64,000 nt of DNA from Minisyncoccota bacterium (GCA_021734945.1 JAIPIA010000003.1:156895-220894), one strand, 5' to 3'. Counted from the first letter of the stretch, positions 463 through 55,605 are shown. The notes: generated by a model not told the origin, from the sequence alone. Numbers and translations are program-made.

Positions 463-619
463 GCGATTTTGATTTGCGAAATCGTATTGAGTTTTATCCT
501 TTCGGCCTCAATCTTCATGCGTCTTTTTTCTCTAACTTTACATATACAATACCACTACCCTTCATAGACGGAAAGGTTGGGTGTTGATTACGAAAAGAGA
601 CATACAAACACTAACTCTG

Positions 620-2083
620 TTAGATTTTTGAGATAATATGCAAAAAATCTTTTTTATCTTTTTCACCAAATGGTCCTGTGATGGCGAGATTTACACCAGA
701 AGCCACAAAAACTTCTTTGGCCACAGTATCTACCTCTTCCTTTTTCACTCCCTCTATATGTTCTGATACCTCTTCCTCAGTAGTGATCTTATCGCGAAGG
801 ATTTCTTCTTTTCCATAAAAGTCTGCAAAATCCTCAGTCGTCTCAAGATGTAGTACAAGCCCAGAAAGTCGGTATTCTTTAACTTTTTTCAATTCATCAA
901 GACTAATACCTCCCTCTTTAAATCGTCGAACCTCGCTCATTATTCCCTCCAATGCCTCCTTTACTCTGTCATTTGCAACTCCAGCCGAAATAACCACGTT
1001 GCCGGCGTCGGGTCGAAGTAATGCACTTGAACCAACGTAATAACAGATACCGAGCTCCTCACGCATTTTTTGAAATAGTCGTGAACTCATTCCGCCTCCG
1101 AGTGCTGTAGTAAGTGTTCGCAAAGCTGAAATCTTTTTCTGTATAGCCACTGGATCCAACTTACCACTTACCTTTAGATCGAGTTTCGACGATATACCAC
1201 CATTTTCATATCCATACGCACGAAATGTAAGTATCAAATGCGTCTGATCAGTCTTACGAGTATCAATAGCAATTTGCGGAGCACTTTGTTTTACAATTGT
1301 CTTCGCACGGGTATTCTTTTTTCCCTCTGGCATTTTTCCAAAAGCTTTTTTGATTTCTGATTCAATAGTTTTCTCATCAAAATTTCCAGCAATAACTACA
1401 AGTGTATTTTTTGCGTCGTACTGACTCTTTCGATATTTAACTAAATCAGCTCTACTGAAACTTGAAACAGTTTCCTTTGTACCGAGTATCTCCCACCCCG
1501 CTGGCTGATCACCATAAAGTAAATGTGTAGCAAGCTTAGCTACTCGTGAATGAGGATCGTCTGCATACATATTTATCTCTTGAATTACTACACCTTTTTC
1601 TTTTTCAATTTCTTCTTGTGGAAATGTAGAATTCAAATATACATCTGAAACAATATCAAAAATGTGTCCTGCGTGTTTTTTGTGTGCTCGCGCAAAATAT
1701 CCAGTCAAACCACGTGATGTGAATGCATTATAATCAGCGCCAATAGTATCGAACTCGAGAGCAATACTCTTTGCAGAAGGTCGCTTAGTTGTCCCCTTGA
1801 AACACATATGTTCCAAAAAATGGGAAAGACCGTTTTGCTTTTTTGATTCAAAGTCAGCGCCTGTAGCAACAAGCACCATAGCAAGTATTGTCTGTGTCTC
1901 TTTCATTGGGATAAAAAGATATCGCAAACCATTTTTGAGAGTTTTTTTATAAAATTTTGGAGAGGAGTGTGATAGTTGAGACATCGAGGCTGATTCAGAT
2001 TTTGATGTTGCACGTGCTTTTTTTGACATGATGTACAAAATATACGCCGATGTGACTAAAATGCAAACCAGCCGGGTCCTCAC
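620..2083 (-). CDS. M16 family zinc peptidase (insulinase-like); true start probably the internal MSKK near 2026
   Basis: HxxEH zinc motif (HFLEHMCFKG) and two-lobed M16 architecture; about 430 aa from the internal Met. Confidence 0.8.
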   Translation of the reverse strand: MRTRLVCILVTSAYILYIMSKKARATSKSESASMSQLSHSSPKFYKKTLKNGLRYLFIPMKETQTILAMVLVATGADFESKKQNGLSHFLEHMCFKGTTKRPSAKSIALEFDTIGADYNAFTSRGLTGYFARAHKKHAGHIFDIVSDVYLNSTFPQEEIEKEKGVVIQEINMYADDPHSRVAKLATHLLYGDQPAGWEILGTKETVSSFSRADLVKYRKSQYDAKNTLVVIAGNFDEKTIESEIKKAFGKMPEGKKNTRAKTIVKQSAPQIAIDTRKTDQTHLILTFRAYGYENGGISSKLDLKVSGKLDPVAIQKKISALRTLTTALGGGMSSRLFQKMREELGICYYVGSSALLRPDAGNVVISAGVANDRVKEALEGIMSEVRRFKEGGISLDELKKVKEYRLSGLVLHLETTEDFADFYGKEEILRDKITTEEEVSEHIEGVKKEEVDTVAKEVFVASGVNLAITGPFGEKDKKDFLHIISKI

Positions 2084-2515: not shown

Positions 2516-2618
2516 ATTGTTTGTGTGATTTGTACTTGCCCCTTAGTTGGAATAAGGTTCTAGGCAAAGTGTATATCACCCATTTAGTAAGTCAATTTAA
2601 AATATTAATAGTAGTCCC

Positions 2619-2696
2619 TTAGTACAAAATAAAATAATGAAAACAGCCTAGCGACAGAGCCCGCGCACAAATGAGGCGTGAGAGTTTCGCTAGGCT
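2619..2696 (-). terminator. intrinsic terminator on minus strand (11-bp GC stem CAGCCUAGCGA/UCGCUAGGCUG followed by a U-rich tract)
   Basis: Perfect inverted repeat at 2643-2653 and 2686-2696; the minus strand then reads UUUUCAUUAUUUUAUUUU. Confidence 0.5.
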
Positions 2697-2880
2697 GGGG
2701 TTTTCGTTGGTTTCGTTGGCTGAGATGGCGAATCTCATGACTGTGAACTTGGGGCTGTTTCTGGTAAAGCCGTACTGCTCCAGACTAGGCGGACCCTGTA
2801 AGGTGCTGCACACAAGAACAGATAAGAAACCAACGCCGACCCTTGAGGGCACTCACTGCATCCGAAGTTCTCAGATTTGA
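2640..2880 (-). ncRNA. GC-rich structured RNA candidate (class unresolved; SRP-, 6S- or tmRNA-like ideas could not be confirmed)
   Basis: A ~55% GC island in ~35% GC DNA with several local hairpins (GAGAU/AUCUC, GGCU/AGCC) and both-strand overlapping short ORFs of GC-artefact composition. It ends in the terminator above. Confidence 0.3.
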
Positions 2881-3043
2881 GCCACTCTCGAACTCTGGAG
2901 AAAAATTCCTTGCTTTTTGCCACCAAGATGACTTCATCAGCATCCTTGGAAGATGTGACTTCTGCAAGTATGTTTTTCCCTGTCTTATCCACAAGAAGGC
3001 TACCCTTCCCTGCAGATGCTAATTTCTCAGCAAGACTTTCCAT
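2735..3043 (-). CDS. hypothetical small protein; only the N-terminal ~57 aa look protein-like, with weak L7Ae-like resemblance. The ORF then reads through the GC-rich element, so its true extent is uncertain
   Basis: The N-terminal sequence MESLAEKLASAGKGSLLVDKTGKNILAEVTSSKDADEVILVAKSKEFFSRVREWLK has ordinary composition. The C-terminal third is Cys/Arg/Pro-rich, typical of translating GC-rich non-coding sequence. Confidence 0.25.
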   Translation of the reverse strand: MESLAEKLASAGKGSLLVDKTGKNILAEVTSSKDADEVILVAKSKEFFSRVREWLKSENFGCSECPQGSALVSYLFLCAAPYRVRLVWSSTALPETAPSSQS

Positions 3044-3284
3044 GATATTTATCCTCTGTCTGACTTCCGGGAATCAGACGGTTTAGTTTTTGTGCAGAAT
3101 GCCAAGCAGTGAAACACCACCAAGCAAGCTTCTCAGGTTCCGGACCAAGAGATTCTGAAGTTAGAATATACTTTGACTAAGATTATTGCAATACCAAAAA
3201 TGACACCCTTTCGAGCGTCATTTTAAGTTCTTTTTCCAAACTATTTTTATACCAACATCGAGATCTACCCAACACGTATTAACT

Positions 3285-31321: not shown

Positions 31322-31359
31322 GAATTATACCAGTTCGATTCTCGTTAGTCCCAAACAAC

Positions 31360-32511: not shown

Positions 32512-32638
32512 ATGATTTATTTTGATTTGGCAGACTATAATTAGTGTTTAACTAAGAACGTAGACGTACCACGCAGACTTATATGACTATTATACTCTTA
32601 TAAAAATTAAATGGAGAACTTGGTCACAGGTTATTCAT

Positions 32639-32732
32639 GTGGTCACAGGTTTCCTCACTGCAGTTCGGAACCCACTACCCCGACTCGCGTGTCTCGTCTA
32701 TTAACTCGACATCGCTCCGTCTCGCCCATGCA
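32639..32732 (-). repeat. GC-rich ~95-nt element, copy B of a duplicated tRNA-adjacent module (GUGCAUGGGCGAGACGGAGC.AUGUCGAGU ... GUGACCAC)
   Basis: The first ~45 nt are near-identical to 50395-50440 on the plus strand, and both copies end in GUGACCAC. It lies just 3' of tRNA-Leu and its terminator. Confidence 0.45.
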
Positions 32733-41310: not shown

Positions 41311-41398
41311 CGGAGGAGTGGCAGAGTGGTCTATCGCGCTTGTCTTGAAAACAAGAGTCCCTTCACGGGGACCGTGAGTTCGAATCTCACCTCCTCCG
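41311..41398 (+). tRNA. tRNA-Ser (anticodon UGA), long variable arm, discriminator G; CCA not encoded
   Basis: Acceptor GGAGGAG/CUCCUCC, anticodon stem CUUGU/ACAAG with loop CUUGAAA, variable arm AGUCCCUUCACGGGGACC, T-arm GUGAGUUCGAAUCUCAC. Confidence 0.85.
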
Positions 41399-41408
41399 CA
41401 AAAACAAA

Positions 41409-41441
41409 GGAGTCCAGCTTTATGCTGGGCTTTTTTGTTTT
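41409..41441 (+). terminator. intrinsic terminator after tRNA-Ser
   Basis: AGUCCAGC-UUUAU-GCUGGGCU followed by UUUUUUGUUUU. Confidence 0.6.
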
Positions 41442-41639
41442 AAACAGATGGTAGCGTGGTGAGATTCGAAAGTGATGTTAAAAGCAAACTGCTTTGTCTT
41501 TTTTACGAGCCGACTATGAAGGGAGTGTTTCCAATCTGAGTGAGAATACAGTTTACAGTTCGGGCGAAACAGGAAACACTCACGAAGTGGAATCTCACCT
41601 TATTTAAAATGTTACAAGAAATATTAGCAAAAATATAAA

Positions 41640-42055
41640 ACTTATCCTTCCTACTTCTGCCAACGCTTACCCCAACCAATATAAAGATTATTTAAAAATG
41701 TATTCCACTTTTTAACAGAAAGATACTTTGGATATATACAAGGGTCCAACGGCTCATCAGATTCCCAAACAACTTCAAACTGTCCATCAATTTCAATTCT
41801 ACCTATTCTGGCAGTTCTTTTTAAATGCTGTGTTTCTTTATCAAATCTGACTATCCCCTCAGGTGACTGGAATGAAATCTCACCTAAAGACTCACGTACA
41901 CTTCTTGAATCATCCGCACCAGCTTTTTCTACTGCTTTTGCAAAAAGATATACACTTGTATATGCAGTTGCAATTGGATCATTAACGACCCTATGGCTCC
42001 CATATTTCTTTTTAAAATTTTCAACAAATATTTTATTTGTCTTTGAGTTGATATT
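41640..42055 (-). pseudogene. C-terminal remnant (~138 aa) of a LivJ-type (PBP type 1) substrate-binding protein; no start, with upstream frameshift/stop
   Basis: A 138-codon open frame translates to FVENFKKKYGSHRVVNDPIATAYTSVYLFAKAVEKAGADDSRSVRESLGEISFQSPEGIVRFDKETQHLKRTARIGRIEIDGQFEVVW. It is bounded 5' by TAG at ~42055; a neighbouring frame reads YQKYKNKD*. It is homologous to the intact SBP at 54523-55605. Confidence 0.55.
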
Positions 42056-42177
42056 CTAATCTTTATTCTTGTACTTTTGGTAGATAGCTGCACTCTCAAC
42101 ATATAGCCACACTCATCGGGTAATAGAGATTTATTTCAATTAAATAAAAATTAAAGTAAAATGGATTATATACATAA

Positions 42178-43314
42178 ATGAAAAAAGCTCTATTTCTCAT
42201 GTTAAACAGGTCACATGACCAAAATTCTATAAAAGATGGAGGGCCTGCTTTGACTAGTGAATTAACAAAAGCTCTTAAACGTAAAAATTATTCCATTGAT
42301 TATATAAGTGGAAATGATATGGCTAAAACAAAACAACACTCAGACTTATCCCCCCTTCTACAACGTATACAAAAAGCAAATGAATTCGGAAAATTTGTTG
42401 ATAAAAATATTTTTAAAGATTATGATTTAATTTTTCTTTCGCACCCAAGCACCGCAATGGGTTTCGAGGCTACAGATTTTCCTATTGAAAAGACCGTTTT
42501 ATTTCCTACCCTACTCGGGAGAGAGTATGCACATTTTATGGAAGTACCAAAAGAATATATAGATTTAGAAAAGAAAATACTTAGTTTCGGATACAAAATT
42601 CAAACACCCTCTAATCAGCAATTTAAAATATTAAACGAAGAATACAATGTTCCAAAAGAGAATATTTTAATTAAACAAAGAGGTTTTTCACCATCTATTT
42701 TTCCAATCAAAGTAAGACACCTACGTAATGATGTTTCTAAAGAAAAACCATTGCGACTAATGAGCGCTAACGCTGTAAGACCCCAAAAAGGCTACATGGA
42801 ATTAATAGACATTGTCGATTTTTGTATAAAAAAAGAATTACCAGTTCAAATAGTTATATATGGTGACACTATTCAATCAAGCAATGAAACATATCTTAAA
42901 TATGCACAGAATTTTGTTGATAAGGTCCAAGAGAAGAATCTTCAAGAATATTTTGAATTTCATCCTTCTGTTGAACAAGAATTATTAAGTAAAGAGATGG
43001 AAAAAGTTGACCTTGCAATAATACCTTCAATCTATGAAAGTTTTGGTAAATCAGCCTTGGAAGCATCAGCAAGTGGTTTACCTACCATTGTCTTTGATGA
43101 CATTTCTGTATATAGAGAATTTTTAAATGATCAGACTGCTATTTTTACTAAAAGAAATCCTAAAGATTTTTACAAATCTATTATCGAATTGATTTCTGCG
43201 CCTGAAAAATATAACAACATCAGTATAAGTGGCATAGAAAATGGAAAAAAATATGTTTCTGAGAATATATATGACGAATTAATTCAGGAGATAGAAGACA
43301 TCTCTAGTAATTAA
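42178..43314 (+). CDS. family 4 (GT4) glycosyltransferase
   Basis: GT4 C-terminal signature IPSIYESFGKSALEASASGLPTIVFDD. Confidence 0.7.
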   Translation: MKKALFLMLNRSHDQNSIKDGGPALTSELTKALKRKNYSIDYISGNDMAKTKQHSDLSPLLQRIQKANEFGKFVDKNIFKDYDLIFLSHPSTAMGFEATDFPIEKTVLFPTLLGREYAHFMEVPKEYIDLEKKILSFGYKIQTPSNQQFKILNEEYNVPKENILIKQRGFSPSIFPIKVRHLRNDVSKEKPLRLMSANAVRPQKGYMELIDIVDFCIKKELPVQIVIYGDTIQSSNETYLKYAQNFVDKVQEKNLQEYFEFHPSVEQELLSKEMEKVDLAIIPSIYESFGKSALEASASGLPTIVFDDISVYREFLNDQTAIFTKRNPKDFYKSIIELISAPEKYNNISISGIENGKKYVSENIYDELIQEIEDISSN

Positions 43315-43913
43315 TCTTTCAAAATAGATATCAAGAATTTAATCTTTTCAATATCGTCCAAATTTTTTTGTCTTACCTTAAGACCAACTTGATTATGCCA
43401 ACCAATCTTTTCTTCAAGTAGATATTCTAACTTTAAAAATCTAGCTTTTACTCCTAAGAAAGATATTTCAACACTAGCATCGCGAGCATTAGTACTAAAT
43501 TTTAATAATTTTCCATGACTTGGCATAGTTGCACGACCAAATTCATCTTCCCAATATCTATGTATATCAGCATGGCAGTACATTGGTTTATCTTCTCTTG
43601 CTTGATCTACTTTGTAACACTCTCCTCTCACTTCTTCAGGCTCATACACAACATGACCCTTACTTTCCAAAAAAACTTTTATTCTTTCTACCGTCAAACT
43701 ATCAGCCATAAGATCAATATCACCATGCTGTCTTGTAAAATACCCACAATGAGCATCAATTGCAAAACCCGCCAAAAAATAGACTACCCACCCTTCTGTT
43801 AATGCCTCACTAGCAATTTCTTTATATAAAATTAAAGATCTCTTACTTCTTTCATCCAAAGCATCTAGTGGCATTGGTGGGTATTTTTCCTCTAGATTAG
43901 GAGAACACATCAT
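43311..43913 (-). CDS. ANT(2'')/Lnu-family nucleotidyltransferase (aminoglycoside/lincosamide nucleotidyltransferase-like)
   Basis: GWVVYFLAGFAIDAHCGYFTRQHGDIDLM aligns with the AadB catalytic region LWIGGGWAIDARLGRVTRKHDDIDL; length 200 aa. Confidence 0.55.
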   Translation of the reverse strand: MMCSPNLEEKYPPMPLDALDERSKRSLILYKEIASEALTEGWVVYFLAGFAIDAHCGYFTRQHGDIDLMADSLTVERIKVFLESKGHVVYEPEEVRGECYKVDQAREDKPMYCHADIHRYWEDEFGRATMPSHGKLLKFSTNARDASVEISFLGVKARFLKLEYLLEEKIGWHNQVGLKVRQKNLDDIEKIKFLISILKD

Positions 43914-43999
43914 AAGTAAACAATATCATGTGTTTAGGAAGTATAAAAAAAGAAACACCCTTCACACCCAATTAAATATATTGTATTATCGAGCCACCC

Positions 44000-44308
44000 T
44001 TGAATGTTCAAGGTTTCAAACCGTTAAAAGTTAGTTCATCAGACAGACAATCATATATCCACCCTGAAACACAGTCCCTCCACTCACCCATGAAAACGCT
44101 CGTTCACCTTCTCTCCGTCTTGGCTTTTGCCACCCTCGCAGCACCCAGCTGCACAATGCAAAAAACCGTCCCTATTTCCTCAGACCGCAGTAATGGCCTG
44201 CTGGACAATGTTCACATCGTCGACAACGACAACATTCGCGAGCAGCAACGAATTGTGACGGGGAGCGACACAAAAGTCCTCCCAATCCTGACCTTCACAG
44301 GCCAATAG
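44000..44308 (+). CDS. small secreted/lipoprotein-like protein in a GC-rich (~55%) segment; likely start MKTLVHLL at ~44090
   Basis: Signal-peptide-like MKTLVHLLSVLAFATLAAPSC; composition differs sharply from the background; strong terminator follows. Confidence 0.35.
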   Translation: MNVQGFKPLKVSSSDRQSYIHPETQSLHSPMKTLVHLLSVLAFATLAAPSCTMQKTVPISSDRSNGLLDNVHIVDNDNIREQQRIVTGSDTKVLPILTFTGQ

Positions 44309-44351
44309 TCAATTCTCTGACTCACAAGCGTCGATCAGCTCGACAAAATCA

Positions 44352-44395
44352 CAGGCCGGAGGCCCAACCCTCACTCCGGCCTGTTTTTTATTTTC
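44352..44395 (+). terminator. strong intrinsic terminator
   Basis: GGCCGGAG-GCCCAACCCUCA-CUCCGGCC followed by UGUUUUUUAUUUU. Confidence 0.7.
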
Positions 44396-44504
44396 AAAAT
44401 TATATTTATAAGAGTTTTATTTTAGACCAACGCTTTATTTATTTCACTAACAACCATATTAATAAATACAACACAAATCTTTTTTCATATGCTAAAATAT
44501 ATTT

Positions 44505-44975
44505 ATGGGAAAAGATCCATTTATTTGGAATGCACATGAATACTATTTTCAGACAAAAACAGCTGATTGGTATTGGGCTGTTGGTATTATTGGTGTATCG
44601 CTCGCAACTATCTCTATTATCTATGGAAATGTATTATTCGCTCTACTTGTACTTGTTAGTACAATTGCACTATCTGTGTTTGCTTCAAAAGAACCAGCTT
44701 TTGTACGTTTTGAAATAAACAAAAGTGGAATAATTATTGGAAAAACATTATTTCCATTTGGAACACTCGACTCTTTTTGGGTAGAAGACAACAAACACCT
44801 CGGTCATGCTTCGCAGCTTTTTATAAAATCTAAAAAAGTTATGGTTCCTATAATAGCCATTCCCCTCGAAGGAATGAACCCTGAGGACATTCGAGATTTC
44901 TTACTTGACCATTTATTTGAAACTCCACACTCTGAGCCACTTGGACAAAAAATTCTTGAGTACTTTGGTTTCTAA
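44505..44975 (+). CDS. membrane protein with bacterial PH-like (YdbS/bPH_2-like) domain, hypothetical
   Basis: Two TM helices followed by a ~80-aa beta-rich domain. Confidence 0.35.
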   Translation: MGKDPFIWNAHEYYFQTKTADWYWAVGIIGVSLATISIIYGNVLFALLVLVSTIALSVFASKEPAFVRFEINKSGIIIGKTLFPFGTLDSFWVEDNKHLGHASQLFIKSKKVMVPIIAIPLEGMNPEDIRDFLLDHLFETPHSEPLGQKILEYFGF

Positions 44976-45032
44976 ACTTTTTGTGATATTTTGCTGCTAT
45001 TGTTGATGGTGTTTTACATACACCCTTTTACA

Positions 45033-45104
45033 GCTCTCGTCGTTCAATGGATAGGACGTAACTTTGCGGAAGTTATGATGCAGGTTCGATTCCTGCCGAG
45101 AGCA
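45033..45104 (+). tRNA. tRNA-Arg (anticodon GCG as read by eye); CCA not encoded
   Basis: Acceptor GCUCUCG/CGAGAGC, anticodon stem UAACU/AGUUA with loop UUGCGGA, T-arm GCAGGUUCGAUUCCUGC. Confidence 0.7.
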
Positions 45105-45351
45105 CACTAAAAATAAAATAACCTGCCATAAGGTATTTTTTTACATTCTATTCGACAAAACAAAAAGGATAGATTGAATCTTTACTTATGTTATTCTTTA
45201 GACATATGACCTATGAAGATTTTGAACAATATCAAAGAGATGAGGAAGAAAGAAGGCGTCGAGAAGGAAAACATCTTGATGATCAGAAAATTGATGCAAC
45301 TATAGATGAGGATAATAAATAAAAATAATATTTTACTCAAATATAAATTCA

Positions 45352-50278: not shown

Positions 50279-50351
50279 GCGCTCGTAGCTCAGTCGGTAG
50301 AGCAGCTCCCTTTTAAGGAGATGGTCGTAGGTTCGATTCCTACCGAGCGCA
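50279..50351 (+). tRNA. tRNA-Lys (anticodon UUU); CCA not encoded
   Basis: GCGCUCGUAGCUCAGUCGGUAGAGCAGCUCCCUUUUAAGGAGAUGGUCGUAGGUUCGAUUCCUACCGAGCGCA. Confidence 0.9.
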
Positions 50352-50361
50352 CAAAGATTCA

Positions 50362-50394: not shown

Positions 50395-50496
50395 GTACAT
50401 GGGCGAGACGGAGCTATGTCGAGTCAGCAGATGAGACAAGCGAGGCGGGGTCGAGGAAATCTGCGAGCGACCGGCGAGTAGATTATCCGTGACCAC
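50395..50496 (+). repeat. GC-rich ~100-nt element, copy A of the duplicated tRNA-adjacent module; followed by a second weak hairpin and U-tract
   Basis: GUACAUGGGCGAGACGGAGCUAUGUCGAGUCAGCAGAUGAGACAAGCGAG ... GUGACCAC; the 5' ~45 nt are near-identical to the minus-strand copy at 32639-32732. Confidence 0.45.
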
Positions 50497-50529
50497 TAAC
50501 TTTCGTGGTTTTGGTATACTTATATTTAA

Positions 50530-51333
50530 ATGAAAACTCTCCTTATCGACAAAGATCGCTACATGATAAAAACTGCGAATCTGGACAAAATCACCGGCAA
50601 ATGGAAAGACGCTGTCGATGCTGCAATTGATGTATATAAAAAAGTATTCGGTGAAAGCTTGGTGTCCGTATATGTTGGAGGAAGTGTTGCCTGCGGTGAA
50701 GCGATAGAAAGTAAGTCTGACATTGACACATATGCTGTTTTAAATATTCCACAAGAGAAAGTTGAAGAGATTGTTAAGACAACGCTCGACGGAGAAAGAT
50801 TAAGGCTTGATAGTGAATTTCCATTTCTCACAAAATTTGAAATGCATGCGTATTCACTTGATATTTTAGGTATTCGAAAACAATTTCAGTTGAGAATTTT
50901 AGCGGTTTGCGTGTACGGTAAAAATTTTGACGCAGATTTCCCAAATTACCCCTTAACAAGAGAAACGTTCCAAAAAGTGCGAATAAGCATGTCCGGCGAT
51001 ATTGAAAAAGCTCGATTGCAACTACAGAAAGCTGATTTGAGTCAGCCTGAATATTCTAAGTATGTTGCAACTGGTGCTCGATGGGTCGCAAAGAGATTGA
51101 TTCGAAACGCAGGAACATTAGCACTTTGGAAGGAAAATTTTTACACAATGAACGTACCAATGATGGCTGAAATATTCGCAGAAGCATATCCAGATAAAAA
51201 GGCAGAGATTGGGGTTCTGCTGAGTTGGGTTGAAAATCCACCAAGTGACGCAAATGTAGTCTTGAATGTTTTAGACACATTTGGTAAATGGCTCATTGAG
51301 GAAGATGAGAGGGTGTTTGGAAAAATGGAGTGA
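50530..51333 (+). CDS. AadA-like ANT(3'')/ANT(9)-family nucleotidyltransferase (aminoglycoside adenylyltransferase-like)
   Basis: NTase motif VSVYVGGSVACGEAIESKSDIDTYAVL and a C-terminal helical (DUF4111-like) domain; 267 aa matches the family size. Confidence 0.55.
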   Translation: MKTLLIDKDRYMIKTANLDKITGKWKDAVDAAIDVYKKVFGESLVSVYVGGSVACGEAIESKSDIDTYAVLNIPQEKVEEIVKTTLDGERLRLDSEFPFLTKFEMHAYSLDILGIRKQFQLRILAVCVYGKNFDADFPNYPLTRETFQKVRISMSGDIEKARLQLQKADLSQPEYSKYVATGARWVAKRLIRNAGTLALWKENFYTMNVPMMAEIFAEAYPDKKAEIGVLLSWVENPPSDANVVLNVLDTFGKWLIEEDERVFGKME

Positions 51334-51464
51334 TATATAAAAATTTGCTCAATTAATTCCCTTAAGGTTTAAGCAGCCTCCTCCCTTTGCAAAGCTCTAA
51401 TAAACAACAACTTATTATAAAGACCATCCATATACTCCCTGTTGGACAGGATAGTTATAATATC

Positions 51465-51545
51465 GTTACGTCTGCCGCACAGTAAAATAAAATGGTCTGC
51501 CATAAGGTATGGCTATTTTATTTACACCCGTTCGATAGGATGAGA
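51465..51545 (+). repeat. partial duplicate of tRNA-Arg 3' end plus ~60 nt of its downstream flank (copy of ~45090-45175)
   Basis: cgtctgccgcacag-taaaataaaatggtctgccataaggtat ... acacccgttcgatagg parallels tRNA-Arg 3' cctgccgagagcacac-taaaaataaaataacctgccataaggtat ... acattctattcgacaaaac ... ggatag. Confidence 0.45.
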
Positions 51546-51646
51546 AAGCCGGACTGAAGCTTCGATGTGAACTAATACGATTTAGTTAGTGAACCAGAAG
51601 CAAAAGAGGAGGGGTCAACAGGACTTTTGTATAACAAAAAGAAAGG

Positions 51647-51671
51647 GTGACCGATTCCTACCAAGCGCACA
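51647..51671 (+). repeat. direct repeat of the tRNA-Lys 3' end (att-like), ~1.3 kb downstream of the tRNA
   Basis: GUGACCGAUUCCUACCAAGCGCACA versus tRNA-Lys 3' GGUUCGAUUCCUACCGAGCGCACA (20 of 21 matches from CGAUUCC); followed by an AGACUGC-containing U-rich tract like the tRNA-Lys terminator. Confidence 0.5.
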
Positions 51672-51746: not shown

Positions 51747-52775
51747 ATGAATAGACCTGAAAAACATCTATCCTTCGAAACTCCAACAGGAAAAAGTCGC
51801 CAAGAACTCACAAACGACGCAGTTATCTTTCTAGAAAAGACTGGCGCGTTCGAACTTTTTAATGACCCAGTCAGAAAATCTGAATGGATTCAAACAACAA
51901 CAGCAGAAGAAGCTGAACAATATATTGAGAGATTAAATGGGATTTTAATAGGAAACCCGATTTATAAAAGAGAGATATATGAAAATCCAGGTATCCTTGT
52001 TGATCCAGATGATAATTTAGTCGACAAACCTACAAACCCAGAAATATCAAGACACCTTTTCAGAGATCTTATTTTTCCAGCGTGTCAAAGAATACCTATT
52101 AATGATGCCTCTGAACTTATGGCAACGTCGATAAATTTACTTCACATGTTTCCGGACGGTAATGGCAGGACGTCTCGATCGACTTATTCCCTCTTTTTTG
52201 AACCTACTCGTGCAAAAATTAAACCACAAGAAAGGAAAGAATTTTTAGAGTGGCAGACAGGAGAACAAAAAGGTGTATTAAATTGGAATCCTCGTTTAAT
52301 TAGATCTAATATTAATTCAATTATTAGAAATAGAATTGATTCAACCAAACCAAGCTTTTTAGAAGCACAAGAATCTTCTGCATTTCCTGAAGAGATATTG
52401 AATTACAAAGGAGAAAACCTTGCTATACAATCTTTAAGAGAAACTTGTCTTTCGAGAGACCCTGATGTCGCTATGGCACTTATTATGCACGCAGGTCGAA
52501 ATGAACTTAACCCAGACGAATTCATTGTAAAAGGAAACAAACTTCTCAATAACCAAAAGATTCTTGAGAGTGTGGATGAATCAACTGCAGTAAGTGTTCT
52601 GGAGTGTCTCGAAACAATTAAGATGCTAAGGGTGGTCACACTTGTTGATGTTTTTGAACACCCAAATGAATATAAAAGCCCGATTGATACCTATAACCTA
52701 AAAGAATATTTTGAATTACTTGTAAAAACAAAAGCTCTTCAAGAACAAAATCCTGATTTAGATATTTCATCCTAA
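51747..52775 (+). CDS. Fic/Doc-family protein (putative AMPylase/toxin-like)
   Basis: Canonical Fic motif HMFPDGNGRTSR (HxFx[DE]GNGRxxR); no (S/T)xxxE(G/N) inhibitory motif found by eye. Confidence 0.7.
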   Translation: MNRPEKHLSFETPTGKSRQELTNDAVIFLEKTGAFELFNDPVRKSEWIQTTTAEEAEQYIERLNGILIGNPIYKREIYENPGILVDPDDNLVDKPTNPEISRHLFRDLIFPACQRIPINDASELMATSINLLHMFPDGNGRTSRSTYSLFFEPTRAKIKPQERKEFLEWQTGEQKGVLNWNPRLIRSNINSIIRNRIDSTKPSFLEAQESSAFPEEILNYKGENLAIQSLRETCLSRDPDVAMALIMHAGRNELNPDEFIVKGNKLLNNQKILESVDESTAVSVLECLETIKMLRVVTLVDVFEHPNEYKSPIDTYNLKEYFELLVKTKALQEQNPDLDISS

Positions 52776-54522: not shown

Positions 54523-55605
54523 ATGAACAAGACGAAACATATTTTTGCTATTATTTTTCTTCTACTAATTGTTGGGCTAATATACTATTTTAAAGGGGGT
54601 TACACTGCGGTGAAAGAAAACAGATCGGCAAATACAGGATTAAAAGTAGGGGTAATATTACCCTTAAGTGGTGATTTGGCTCAACTAGGCGAAGAAGTCC
54701 AGAAAGGGATTGAATTAGGTGTAGAGGAAGCTAGAAAAAATGGATATAAAATTGATGTCATATACGGCGATGATAAAAGTAACTTTGGTGCAGATTCTGT
54801 CAGCGAGGCCAATAAACTTATACATATAAATAAAGTTGATGTTGTATTGACTCTTTTTGCAGAAGAAGCAAAACCAATCATACCAATAGTATCAAAGAGC
54901 AGGGTTCCTCTTCTCGTCTTATGGGATAGCAATAGATTTATAACTGAAGCTGGACCGTATGTGTTTAGTAATGGTTTTTCAACTGAAAAAGCCGCTATTA
55001 AAATGGCAGATTATGCTTTTAATGAATTAGAAAAAAGAAAAATCGCTATTGTGGGACATATAGATCCTTGGGTAGAAATCGCCGTCGAGTCTTTTAAAAA
55101 GCAATTTATTGGCCATGGTGGTCAAATTACATTTGAAGAAATTGTTCCTGTTACTACTGATGACTATCGAACAACAATTACAAAACTAAAACAGACCGAC
55201 TTTGATGCAGTTTATTTTCCTCTTATTCCCCCTTCTACTGCTCAATTTCTTATTCAAGCAAAACAACTCGGAATTAATACCACTTTATTGACTGGAGATC
55301 TAATACCAAGTGTTGTAGATGAAGCAAAGACTTCTGCTGAAAATGTATATACAACAAATATCTTTACTGACGAAGACGACGCTTTAAACCAAAAATATAA
55401 AGACTTTTTTGGCACTGAGATTGGAGACAGCACTCTCGTATCTTTTGGATATGATGGTATTGATTCAATCATTAAGGCAAAAAACAAAGACTCTGAAAGT
55501 CTTGCGACTGGATTTTTATTACTTTACGGTAAAAAACATTCTGCAGATAAAGAGGAGAGGCTCTACCAAGTTCAAAAAGGCGAACAAGTTCTAATTGAAA
55601 AATAA
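54523..55605 (+). CDS. ABC transporter substrate-binding protein, LivJ/branched-chain amino-acid type (PBP type 1)
   Basis: Signal anchor, two Rossmann-like lobes (KVGVILPLSGDLAQLGEE...) and a C-terminus homologous to the pseudogene at 41640-42055. Confidence 0.75.
   Translation: MNKTKHIFAIIFLLLIVGLIYYFKGGYTAVKENRSANTGLKVGVILPLSGDLAQLGEEVQKGIELGVEEARKNGYKIDVIYGDDKSNFGADSVSEANKLIHINKVDVVLTLFAEEAKPIIPIVSKSRVPLLVLWDSNRFITEAGPYVFSNGFSTEKAAIKMADYAFNELEKRKIAIVGHIDPWVEIAVESFKKQFIGHGGQITFEEIVPVTTDDYRTTITKLKQTDFDAVYFPLIPPSTAQFLIQAKQLGINTTLLTGDLIPSVVDEAKTSAENVYTTNIFTDEDDALNQKYKDFFGTEIGDSTLVSFGYDGIDSIIKAKNKDSESLATGFLLLYGKKHSADKEERLYQVQKGEQVLIEK

Follow-up and report, generated by a model that had tools for sequence, protein, structure and literature searches.

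Genomic islands linked to tRNA genes carry variable cargo directly 3' of an intact tRNA gene. In integrons, single promoterless or small gene cassettes are arranged in tandem, and their attC sites are short imperfect palindromes in which structure is conserved over sequence and one strand is preferred. Intergenic repeats of the REP (repetitive extragenic palindromic) or MITE (miniature inverted-repeat transposable element) type are multi-copy, small and non-coding, possess terminal inverted repeats and often overlap terminators. Y RNAs such as YrlA and Yrn1 are non-coding RNAs which mimic tRNA (PMC4201824). Here we describe a locus which invites comparison with all of these, namely the region from 41.4 to 44.47 kb within a stretch of 64,000 nucleotides from a Minisyncoccota bacterium (GCA_021734945.1 JAIPIA010000003.1:156895-220894), the whole of which is called the window in the following (GC content 0.365, seven tRNA genes). 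We consider it rather probable that this region represents the filling of a gene-turnover hot spot 3' of tRNA-Ser(UGA) in the genome of a member of the Paceibacteria, which belong to the Candidate Phyla Radiation (CPR), and that it includes a degenerate copy of a tRNA-flanking element; it would be neither ancestral nor a recognisable integrase island. Taken alone, the islet is ordinary. The notable result is the element family behind its hairpin, the members of which copy the 3' end of the tRNA they follow and which is apparently undescribed.

A RuvX-based scan of species-representative genomes and metagenomes yielded 102 loci (designated by L and a number) which, together with the window, amount to 103 sequences. 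The stretch fetched around RuvX contains tRNA-Ser(UGA) in 70 of these. As revealed by tblastn, 17 related loci from Patescibacteria retain the order tRNA-Ser(UGA), 156-aa membrane-protein gene, tRNA-Arg(GCG), and in all 17 a homologue of the 156-aa gene is present between the two tRNAs. The distance from tRNA-Ser to this gene starts at 57, 63 and 109 nt and reaches 3,106 nt (window), 3,328 nt and 5,091 nt. Since the gap sizes vary from 57 to 5,091 nt with fillings which are unrelated between loci (VKOR-like membrane proteins, an 867-aa Ig-repeat protein, a DUF3800-like protein, an aminopeptidase and others), we take a gap of about 60-100 nt for the ancestral state and the position for a recurrent insertion slot. 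In the closest relative, L002, whose RuvX is 74% identical and whose tRNA-Ser is identical, the slot is occupied by a 311-aa acidic repeat protein. Neither blastn nor tblastx finds a match to window positions 41400-44500 in the loci of 21 relatives; as with tRNA-linked genomic islands, the block is absent from relatives at the same site. Within the window, the slot accommodates, in this order, the degenerate element, a remnant of a UrtA-type binding protein, a GT4 (glycosyltransferase family 4) gene, a nucleotidyltransferase gene and a foreign secreted-protein cassette (see the table). An earlier note made from the DNA alone, here called the sequence-only reading, had regarded the region as accessory and had named beforehand what would speak against this: an ancestral block in relatives, and a nucleotidyltransferase lacking its catalytic residues. 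Since the block is lineage-variable and the catalytic residues are retained (see below), neither is the case, and the accessory-islet reading is supported. Three proteins of the window match entries of a Candidatus Pacebacteria metagenome-assembled genome, which places the window within the CPR (Patescibacteria). The nucleotidyltransferase, GT4 and 156-aa genes recur on an independent contig from Logan, L001, of 3,651 bp. Over the aligned stretch 41412-42000, L001 is identical to the window; its offset places it at about 41412-45062, so it ends beside tRNA-Ser and inside tRNA-Arg. A membrane protein of about 150 aa with CxxC-type motifs (VKOR-like as judged by eye) recurs in the slot of L062, L072, L037 and L065 and may be a semi-conserved occupant in several lineages.

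Behind tRNA-Ser and its terminator, the sequence-only reading had noticed two T-arm-like fragments forming nested 10-bp inverted repeats. Both fragments are present, with their starts corrected to 41458 and 41590, and so is the nesting, the outer repeat being formed by 41458-41467 and 41590-41599. GGTGAGATTCGAA at 41458-41470 is the exact reverse complement of tRNA-Ser 41379-41391, i.e. of the T-loop and the 3' T-stem strand, a 13-mer match for which the chance expectation is 0.06 per window. The right arm copies the 3' T-stem strand as far as the first acceptor base; what followed of the acceptor copy has been lost. What does not stand is the view of these repeats as plain tRNA fragments or as the scar of a one-off attachment site: the repeats form the arms of structured elements belonging to a widespread family, which follows many different tRNA genes.

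The architecture of this family was read from the 350 nt following tRNA-Ser(UGA) in all loci. An element lies on the tRNA strand, right after the tRNA terminator, and comprises in this order an inverted copy of the acceptor 3' strand, a hairpin designated hp1, an inverted copy of the 3' T-stem strand and T-loop (...GAGATTCGAA), an internal domain, and a direct copy of the 3' T-stem and acceptor 3' strand. Inverted and direct copies pair to form one long helix which recreates the acceptor and T stems of the tRNA; hp1 is found at the exit position of the variable arm, while the domain takes the place of the T-loop. Among 64 loci, tRNA-tail copies of at least 10 nt occur downstream 11 times in direct and 11 times in inverted orientation, compared to 2 and 0 in the upstream controls. 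The same architecture, with arms matching the local tRNA, is observed after tRNA-Arg(GCG) (8 of 30), tRNA-Arg(UCU) (5 of 43) and tRNA-Leu(GAG) (3 of 14) as well as after tRNA-Val, tRNA-Lys, tRNA-His and tRNA-Ser(GCU). Moreover, the arms track the tRNA variants of each genome, reading CCTATCC in L061, CTTCCTCC in L035, CTCTC in L003 and L024, and GAAGG/CGCCTCC in L033. The loop of the terminator or of hp1 is often ACUGC (judged by eye). In addition to its cognate arms, L033 exhibits a second, partial element at about 2430-2540 on the plus strand, behind tRNA-Ser (2206-2293), whose arms GCGGAGGAA...GGTGAGA match the common tRNA-Ser variant and not the tRNA-Ser of L033 itself. These non-cognate arms hint at element transfer between genomes.

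Two types of internal domain exist, both of which contain the motif NNC-GGA-GC...GC-GA-GNN. In type A a long hairpin has this motif as its cap; GUACUG comes next, and then a small hairpin whose loop reads UGUAA/GUA. In type B the motif forms one branch of a three-way junction beside a long helix starting GGUCG.../...UGACC. A seed alignment of 20 type-B sequences, including the copies at 50398-50497 and 32638-32730 of the window, was used to derive a covariance model, R1. In the seed, 89% of cells are paired, compared to 34-45% with slid partners, and 20 of 27 pairs exhibit compensatory changes. The covariation score amounts to 0.48 versus 0.18 in shuffles, with none of 500 shuffles reaching the observed value. 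R1 finds 32 matches in 764 kb of loci, about a dozen of which are outside the seed, and in the alignment obtained thereafter 90.8% of cells are paired and 24 of 26 pairs show compensatory changes. For hp1, such changes are observed in 9 of 9 pairs (25 elements, six tRNA species). One G.U pair of type B is nearly invariant, a GGA/GA internal loop is also present, and in each of 10 elements compared, folding is better for the tRNA strand than for the opposite one; the G.U pair and the folding preference point to the tRNA strand. A same-strand tRNA is located upstream of 32 out of 35 R1 matches (32 in the loci plus 3 in the window), in 24 of these 32 cases within 90 nt. Two arrangements can be distinguished: "armed" copies with cognate arms of 10-21 nt are found 57-90 nt from the tRNA, and "armless" copies, consisting of the domain only, 34-46 nt from it, directly after the terminator. 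The place of a true tRNA end in front of an armless unit can also be taken by the right arm of an earlier element, in exactly the same arrangement (L002, tRNA-Arg(GCG)).

Rfam 15 was searched at gathering and at permissive thresholds (E up to 1-10) with the window and 11 element-carrying loci; only tRNA passes, and nothing relevant appears even at permissive E. The Y RNA models among these likewise give no match in the window or the 11 loci, where the elements have tRNAs and unrelated cargo for neighbours. Y RNAs resemble the elements in being RNAs of about 100-200 nt with tRNA-like helices and a second conserved module, and the element helix GGUCGCGA.../...UUGUGACC loosely recalls the Ro-binding GGUCCGA motif. 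Yet Y RNAs adjoin rsr, are limited to one or two copies, contain internal mimics of the D and T arms and are represented by Rfam models, whereas the elements are multi-copy, reside 3' of tRNA genes and copy acceptor and T stem of the neighbouring tRNA exactly. From REP- and MITE-type repeats the elements differ in that their inverted repeats match the adjacent tRNA instead of being intrinsic to the element, in their strict position and orientation relative to tRNA genes, and in their extensive compensatory changes. No description of a tRNA-flanking element of this kind was found in the literature. Several known RNAs were considered and discarded: tmRNA (no ARAGORN call, a Ser-type acceptor stem, and, by eye, too short), SRP, 6S and RNase P RNAs (no motif, by eye, and no Rfam match), hammerhead and other self-cleaving ribozymes (core motifs absent, by eye), a T-box (no specifier and no T-box sequence, by eye) and a group II intron remnant, the 5' GUGC of which is the inverted ...GCAC end of the tRNA, with neither a domain 5 nor an Rfam match.

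These conserved domains also bear on the idea that the hairpin is a neutral mutational by-product, with inverted copies of the tRNA 3' end arising where replication switches templates or folds back, namely at the terminator hairpin and at the palindrome TTCGAA in the T-loop, and with the slot being merely tolerant intergenic DNA. Indeed, a single long and perfect palindrome often extends from the tRNA 3' end over trailer and terminator to the inverted acceptor copy (L059, L068, L051, L037), as quasi-palindrome correction would produce; gene conversion would account for arms which track the tRNA sequence, and the window copy is decayed and not unusually stable. We nevertheless regard this origin as improbable, given that domains of types A and B, which have 20-24 compensatory pairs and junction nucleotides that do not vary, are kept across lineages whose RuvX proteins share 40-50% identity and that the conserved hp1 as well as the fixed order and spacing of the parts would stay unexplained.

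How does the copy behind tRNA-Ser of the window fit into this family? Its arms start at +58 (13 nt) and +190 (11 nt), compared to about +45-80 and +155-190 in the family, they are located on the tRNA strand, and they exhibit the GCGTG and AAAG junctions. The inverted acceptor copy and the acceptor part of the right arm are missing, and of hp1 only the 3' "GCG" is left. The interior consists, in order, of an A-tract, an ACUGC-loop hairpin, a T-tract and ACGAGCCGACTATG. We read this copy, from its sequence, as a truncated and decayed family member, a state which fits its unremarkable folding energy (z-scores of the hairpin of -1.3 on the plus and -2.4 on the minus strand). The best R1 score within 41400-41660 amounts to 0.5 bits, which gives no grounds for calling its interior a type-B domain. 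Nor does the type-A apical motif occur anywhere in the window. A global alignment of five tRNA-Ser elements by MAFFT/RNAalifold misaligned the window copy, and its global alignment with L002 was uninformative outside the tRNA. Short copies of the tRNA-Ser 3' end (10-11 nt) occur only at 41590-41600 and at 41874-41885. The latter is a third copy of AATCTCACCT (3' T-stem strand plus first acceptor base), is situated inside the binding-protein remnant and encodes G-E-I-S on the minus strand. With an estimated 0.006 or so matches expected in 3.3 kb, it could be due to chance or represent another old junction.

Two intact copies are found elsewhere in the window, as armless type-B domains behind tRNA-Lys and tRNA-Leu(GAG). 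The right arm of the third, weaker copy, GATTCCTACCAAGCGCAC (51653-51670), corresponds with one mismatch to the 18-nt tRNA-Lys 3' end (50335-50352) and overlaps the last three bases of the R1 match. Because GATTCCTACCAAGCGCAC repeats the tRNA-Lys end, the nucleotidyltransferase-like gene 50530-51333 is bracketed by tRNA-Lys plus element on one side and element plus tRNA-end repeat on the other. The tRNA-Lys islet which the sequence-only reading had paired with the tRNA-Ser islet, each with a nucleotidyltransferase of its own, thus exists, the assignment of its nucleotidyltransferase falling just short of the NTP_transf_2 cut-off (20.5 versus 21 bits). In L002, tRNA-Lys is followed by an element, two different genes and an element, and tRNA-Arg(UCU) by a 181-aa open reading frame (ORF), a partial tRNA-end repeat (...AGGGGCAC) and a type-B unit. 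Altogether, there are at least three places in which cargo has a tRNA on one side and, on the other, a displaced tRNA-end repeat together with an element. After tRNA-Val of L068, a perfect 58-nt repeat, reaching from the T-loop through trailer and terminator, is present on both sides of the element, which points to recent conversion or insertion.

Several further observations concern the copies and their surroundings. Five type-B copies are contained in 20 kb of L002 (455-552, 2489-2587, 7585-7683, 14580-14677 and 20361-20458). Four are downstream of a same-strand tRNA, two of them at 39-40 nt, one at 219 nt behind a type-A element and one at 715 nt behind an ORF; the fifth is about 2 kb from tRNA-Lys, past cargo genes. 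This density suggests dozens of copies per genome. After tRNA-His of the window, GGGACTAACGAGAATCGAAC is, as judged from its match to the tRNA, a stub of the family's 5' module, and the promoter-like TGGTATAAT together with a gene start follows directly. A conserved sequence of about 45 nt, CC..TT.GACA.GATAGTTATAATATCGTTACGTCTGC.GCACA, precedes the type-B unit both at 51436-51480 of the window and at about 606-655 (minus strand) of L002. It resembles the promoter and leader of a tRNA gene, behind which nearly the whole tRNA has been deleted so that its 5' start is joined to ...GCAC, and suggests that some units may be driven directly by a former tRNA promoter. TAAAA(A)TAAAAT..CTGCCATAAGGTAT is common to the terminator after tRNA-Arg(GCG) (45106-45145) and the hairpin preceding the third type-B copy (51481-51528); as modules, trailers and terminators seem to have been shuffled from one tRNA locus to another. 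The window tRNA-Arg(GCG) itself has no element, its slot being filled by a 44-aa ORF and a DUF218 gene; at this place L002 possesses a type-A and a type-B unit. In the tRNA-Lys islet, the weak NTP_transf_2 and PADLOC PDC-S09 protein (50530-51333) is paired with a weak Fic-like protein (51747-52775). Finally, a gap of about 760 nt at 2520-3280 includes no ORF longer than 102 aa. Its GC-rich core (2640-2900; GC 0.55 in the 200 nt from 2651, among the four highest GC peaks of the window) holds GTACTGCTCC...CCCTGTAAGG and recalls the type-A GUACUG plus UGUAA-loop hairpin; within 2520-3280, Rfam returns noise only at E up to 5, and R1 gives no match.

Direct copies of the tRNA 3' end downstream of the gene, the 18-nt repeat with one mismatch around the tRNA-Lys islet, the 58-nt repeat including trailer and terminator around the L068 element and the ends of L001 (about 41412-45062) beside both tRNAs are all what one would expect of a classical integrase island, i.e. 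of a mobile element that had entered the 3' end of tRNA-Ser by integration, with the genes as its remains and the T-arm pieces as decayed attL and attR sites. The likeness to tRNA-linked genomic islands extends to the variable cargo directly 3' of an intact tRNA gene and to the direct tRNA 3'-end repeat which bounds the tRNA-Lys islet. In contrast to such islands, no integrase is detected in the ORFs and Pfam matches of 41.3-44.5 kb or among the largest ORFs of 11 other occupied tRNA-Ser slots, nor does an excisionase or a gene of a phage or of an integrative and conjugative element occur in any of these slots. The full 18-mer of the tRNA-Ser 3' end has no second copy within the window, even with up to 3 mismatches allowed, so that the tRNA-Ser islet is devoid of a repeat at its far end. 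Here, the cargo comprises one to four genes and is accompanied by an inverted copy, a covarying hairpin and a structured domain; an integration scar would leave the inverted copy, the covariation of hp1 and the compensatory changes of the domain unexplained, as well as the recurrence of the architecture after six or more tRNA species with arms which are cognate each time. Viral contigs yielded at least 120 pattern matches, but R1 applied to 80 of these loci gave a single marginal score (23.5 bits), which is consistent with chance. An integrase island is thus the reading least consistent with the data, and we consider it unlikely.

Somewhat less unlikely appears the view that the family is non-autonomous mobile DNA, MITE- or attC-like, which would fold as single-stranded DNA, be moved by a recombinase encoded elsewhere and capture single-gene cassettes at tRNA 3' ends. 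The elements resemble attC sites as short imperfect palindromes with conservation of structure over sequence and a strand bias, and their cargo resembles tandem cassettes with single promoterless or small genes. The five type-B copies within 20 kb of L002, domains which are near-identical within a genome and differ between genomes, the partial L033 copy with the arms of a non-cognate tRNA-Ser variant and cargo flanked by elements plus tRNA-end repeat all agree with mobility; in addition, the armless tRNA-Lys copies seem to keep arm remnants nearer to those of another tRNA (by eye, unscored). Against this, no recombinase or transposase is located beside any copy, and no target-site duplication of fixed length is seen. 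For the elements there is no sign of IntI, attI or R'/R'' core sites, and unlike attC sites they are anchored to tRNA genes, copy the neighbouring tRNA in their arms and form a three-way junction containing conserved G.U pairs as well as a GGA/GA internal loop. These two features are encountered more typically in RNA, and co-transcription would account just as well for the strict orientation of the elements and their distance from tRNA genes.

Tentatively, as something possible rather than probable, we propose that the elements constitute a previously undescribed tRNA-coupled class of Patescibacteria which combines a replica of the tRNA top half (acceptor and T arm) with a three-way-junction domain, acting either as a co-transcribed tRNA-mimic RNA or as a folded single-stranded recombination site. 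They would permit the integrase-free docking of single-gene cassettes, and the tRNA-Ser and tRNA-Lys islets of the window would be products thereof. In our main explanation, the elements would work in single-stranded form, on the tRNA strand, the simplest case being an RNA that arises by read-through from the strong tRNA promoters. Together with the tRNA they would provide duplicated tRNA-3'-end sequence and multi-copy homology, i.e. substrates for recombination, by which cargo would be gained, displaced and lost, giving rise to the order tRNA, cargo, tRNA-3'-end repeat, element. Possible routes are site-specific recombination, gene conversion or, in these competence-dependent bacteria, homology-anchored uptake, each of which would turn the 3' flanks of tRNA genes into hot spots for cassettes.

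A number of points weigh against this picture. An intrinsic terminator separates the tRNA from the element and there is no room for a promoter; since, in addition, no recombinase partner was found, the RNA or recombination mechanism is held at moderate confidence. Neither a circular junction nor a clean pair of empty and occupied sites was found, and the tRNA-Ser islet has, as stated, no far-end repeat within the window. Several copies per genome, near-identical domains within one genome (L003, tRNA-Arg versus tRNA-Leu), tandem copies (L065, L033) and the perfect 58-nt repeat of L068 are traits of mobile or recombining DNA. With R1 at about 0 bits and a fold that is not significantly stable, membership of the tRNA-Ser copy rests on its arms, their spacing, the 19-nt junction and short similarities of the interior. 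Lastly, the GT4 and nucleotidyltransferase genes are host-like in composition, with a GC content of 0.31-0.34 and a GC content at third codon positions (GC3) of 0.21 compared to about 0.22 for host genes, and for lack of a composition shift both could be old residents.

Table. Positions of the features of the tRNA-Ser slot and of further element copies in the window.
Feature	Position	Strand	Evidence	Remark
Inverted stub after tRNA-His	31333-31352	-	GGGACTAACGAGAATCGAAC, partial inverted copy of tRNA-His 3' end	
Intact type-B domain	32638-32730	-	R1 67.3 bits	40 nt after tRNA-Leu(GAG); seed member
tRNA-Ser(UGA)	41312-41399	+	ARAGORN; Rfam tRNA 55.9 bits; identical in L002	Left anchor of variable slot
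Bidirectional terminator-like hairpin	41401-41418 / 41424-41441, then T-run	+	Inverted repeat with flanking A-/T-tracts; terminator scan match 41414-41428	
Left arm with element-specific junction GCGTG-GTGAGATTCGAA-AG	41454-41473	+	Exact 13-mer	Junction common to L005, L048, L061, L068
Decayed interior	41480-41520	+	Compared with copies after tRNA-Lys, tRNA-Leu and in L002	Recalls start of armless unit
Inner 10-bp inverted repeat	41523-41581	+	GAGTGTTTCC 41523-41532 / GGAAACACTC 41572-41581	Encloses 39-nt loop
Right arm GAATCTCACCT	41590-41600	+	Exact direct copy of tRNA-Ser 41382-41392	
Pseudogene of UrtA/amide-type periplasmic binding protein	41651-42055	-	Profile matches	C-terminal part, about 110 residues
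GT4 glycosyltransferase	42178-43314	+	Glycos_transf_1 PF00534 E 1.7e-21	378 aa
Small Pol-beta-fold nucleotidyltransferase	43311-43913	-	PF10706 25.2 bits (cut-off 21)	200 aa
Foreign cassette	43961-44389	+	GC, terminator scan, codon-position GC	Promoter-like site, 72-aa secreted-type ORFan, strong hairpin terminator
Promoter-like site of cassette	43961-43989	+		
ORF of cassette	44090-44308	+		
Terminator hairpin of cassette	44346-44361 / 44374-44389, then T-run	+		
Conserved 156-aa membrane-protein gene	44505-44975	+		Right anchor of slot; then tRNA-Arg(GCG) 45033-45105
Intact type-B domain	50398-50497	+	R1 76.1 bits, E 7e-17	46 nt after tRNA-Lys; seed member
Third, weaker type-B copy	51539-51670 (R1 match 51539-51655)	+	R1 23.9 bits, E 4e-4	Not in seed

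Among the cargo of the tRNA-Ser slot, the nucleotidyltransferase gene had been described by the sequence-only reading as antibiotic-type and AadB/Lnu-like. As far as fold and motif are concerned this agrees with our results. The AlphaFold model (predicted local distance difference test score 94.7) finds LnuA as its closest Foldseek match (E 8e-9, template modelling (TM) score 0.62-0.76), followed by ANT(2'')-Ia (TM about 0.6), TM1012 and MenT1 (TM about 0.5), and the segment G-x-A-I-D...H-x-D-I-D aligns with the catalytic DxD motif of ANT(2'')-Ia. With LnuA, ANT(2'')-Ia and MenT1 the protein shares the Pol-beta fold, and with the ANT(2'')-Ia and Lnu enzymes also the G...D-x-D motif and a third carboxylate. 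The aspartates of the catalytic centre are kept: D65, D67, D103 and D116 are invariant in seven homologues, as are G49, D53, H63 and H118 in the family. The likeness stops there. Sequence identity amounts to 17-19% with LnuA and ANT(2'') and to 12-19% across LnuA, ANT(2'')-Ia, TM1012 and MenT1, and the NCBIfam resistance models score far below their cut-offs (NF000061, 19.1 versus 300 bits; NF000064, 17.0 versus 350 bits). The gene is therefore not to be called a resistance gene, which removes a likely mis-annotation as an aminoglycoside or lincosamide resistance determinant. Judged from sequence and model, it probably encodes an active small Pol-beta-fold enzyme in the fold neighbourhood of LnuA, ANT(2'') and MenT. 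MenT1, which the model also resembles, is a toxin modifying the acceptor end of tRNA.

Only six homologues of the nucleotidyltransferase, 44-54% identical, are found among 5.8 billion clusters. Their contexts are variable and CPR-like: a large serine recombinase together with a TIR protein and a LexA-like gene, a Panacea-domain antitoxin, or a run of small genes of no assigned function. A link between the nucleotidyltransferase and the repeat elements was considered and dropped, R1 having no match in three loci which encode homologues. Within the window, nucleotidyltransferases occupy two islets beside tRNA-mimicking elements (43311-43913 and 50530-51333).

The nucleotidyltransferase gene overlaps the GT4 gene tail-to-tail by four bases. 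The assignment of the latter by the sequence-only reading proved correct; it has a GC content of 0.31 and a GC3 of 0.21, and its match to the GT4-conflict family PF20706 (25.3 bits) stays just below the cut-off of 26. PADLOC contains no defence-system model for the GT4, the nucleotidyltransferase or the ORFan gene. Upstream of GT4, a truncated pseudogene of a binding protein is indeed present, beginning at 41651 and not at 41640. It consists of 134 codons, has no start codon and is directly preceded by a stop codon. Its type had been given as LivJ; from the matches to Peripla_BP_5 (profile positions 251-361 of 363, E 2e-32) and to the UrtA model TIGR03407 (positions 254-360 of 361, E 8e-31) it belongs to the UrtA/amide type and not to LivJ proper. 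The full two-lobe UrtA/AmiC-type domain of about 360 residues is not contained in 41651-42055. Its best matches outside the window are from Actinobacteria (40-50% identity). A relationship to the gene at 54523-55605, for which an alignment had been suggested, as a paralogue or a copy is ruled out (BLASTP E 0.083).

The only cargo gene of foreign composition is the 72-aa ORFan, with GC contents of 0.55, 0.38 and 0.64 at the first, second and third codon positions. The composition check proposed earlier hence singles out this gene, the GC and GC3 values of GT4 and nucleotidyltransferase being host-like. A small secreted-protein gene of about 55% GC with a strong terminator had been proposed here; ORF and terminator are confirmed, the GC content amounting to 0.50 over 43995-44395. 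The attribute lipoprotein-like does not hold. Whereas the N-terminus is signal-peptide-like, the protein reads ...TLAAPSC, so that the canonical lipobox [LVI][ASTVI][GAS]C is replaced by the non-canonical A-P-S-C with A and P at positions -3 and -2. A word-indexed homologue search returned only the ORFan itself, and an exhaustive phmmer search gave no credible homologue, its one spurious match being a 21-aa motif repeated 20 times in an Ig-repeat protein. The stretch 43995-44395 might instead be a structured non-coding RNA: a GC content of about 0.50 within a background of 0.365 recalls the GC-rich repeat elements, fold z-scores reach -3.7 and -3.4, and the ORF has neither a Shine-Dalgarno-like sequence nor homologues. 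We give this little credence. Much of the fold stability is supplied by the terminator hairpin, Rfam yields no match, and the 21 relatives contain no related sequence on which covariation could be tested. The ORF, on the other hand, starts with a plausible signal peptide, and its codon-position GC pattern, which fits a coding gene from a GC-richer donor, favours a real and recently imported gene over a non-coding RNA. Following the ORFan terminator, a 26-nt AT-rich sequence (44384-44409) recurs with 81% identity directly upstream of the 156-aa start codon (44481-44506); this may be a junction duplication from insertion of the GC-rich cassette or a low-complexity chance similarity.

Bacteria of the CPR have tiny genomes, and their gene gain and loss are poorly understood. 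In many of their lineages the position just 3' of a tRNA gene is a recurrent insertion slot which is used without a visible integrase. If the element acts as an RNA, it would be a new tRNA mimic originating from tRNA operons; if it acts as a DNA site, it would represent a new kind of cassette-docking signal. On either reading, the covariance model together with the defined boundaries and strands provides a testable handle.

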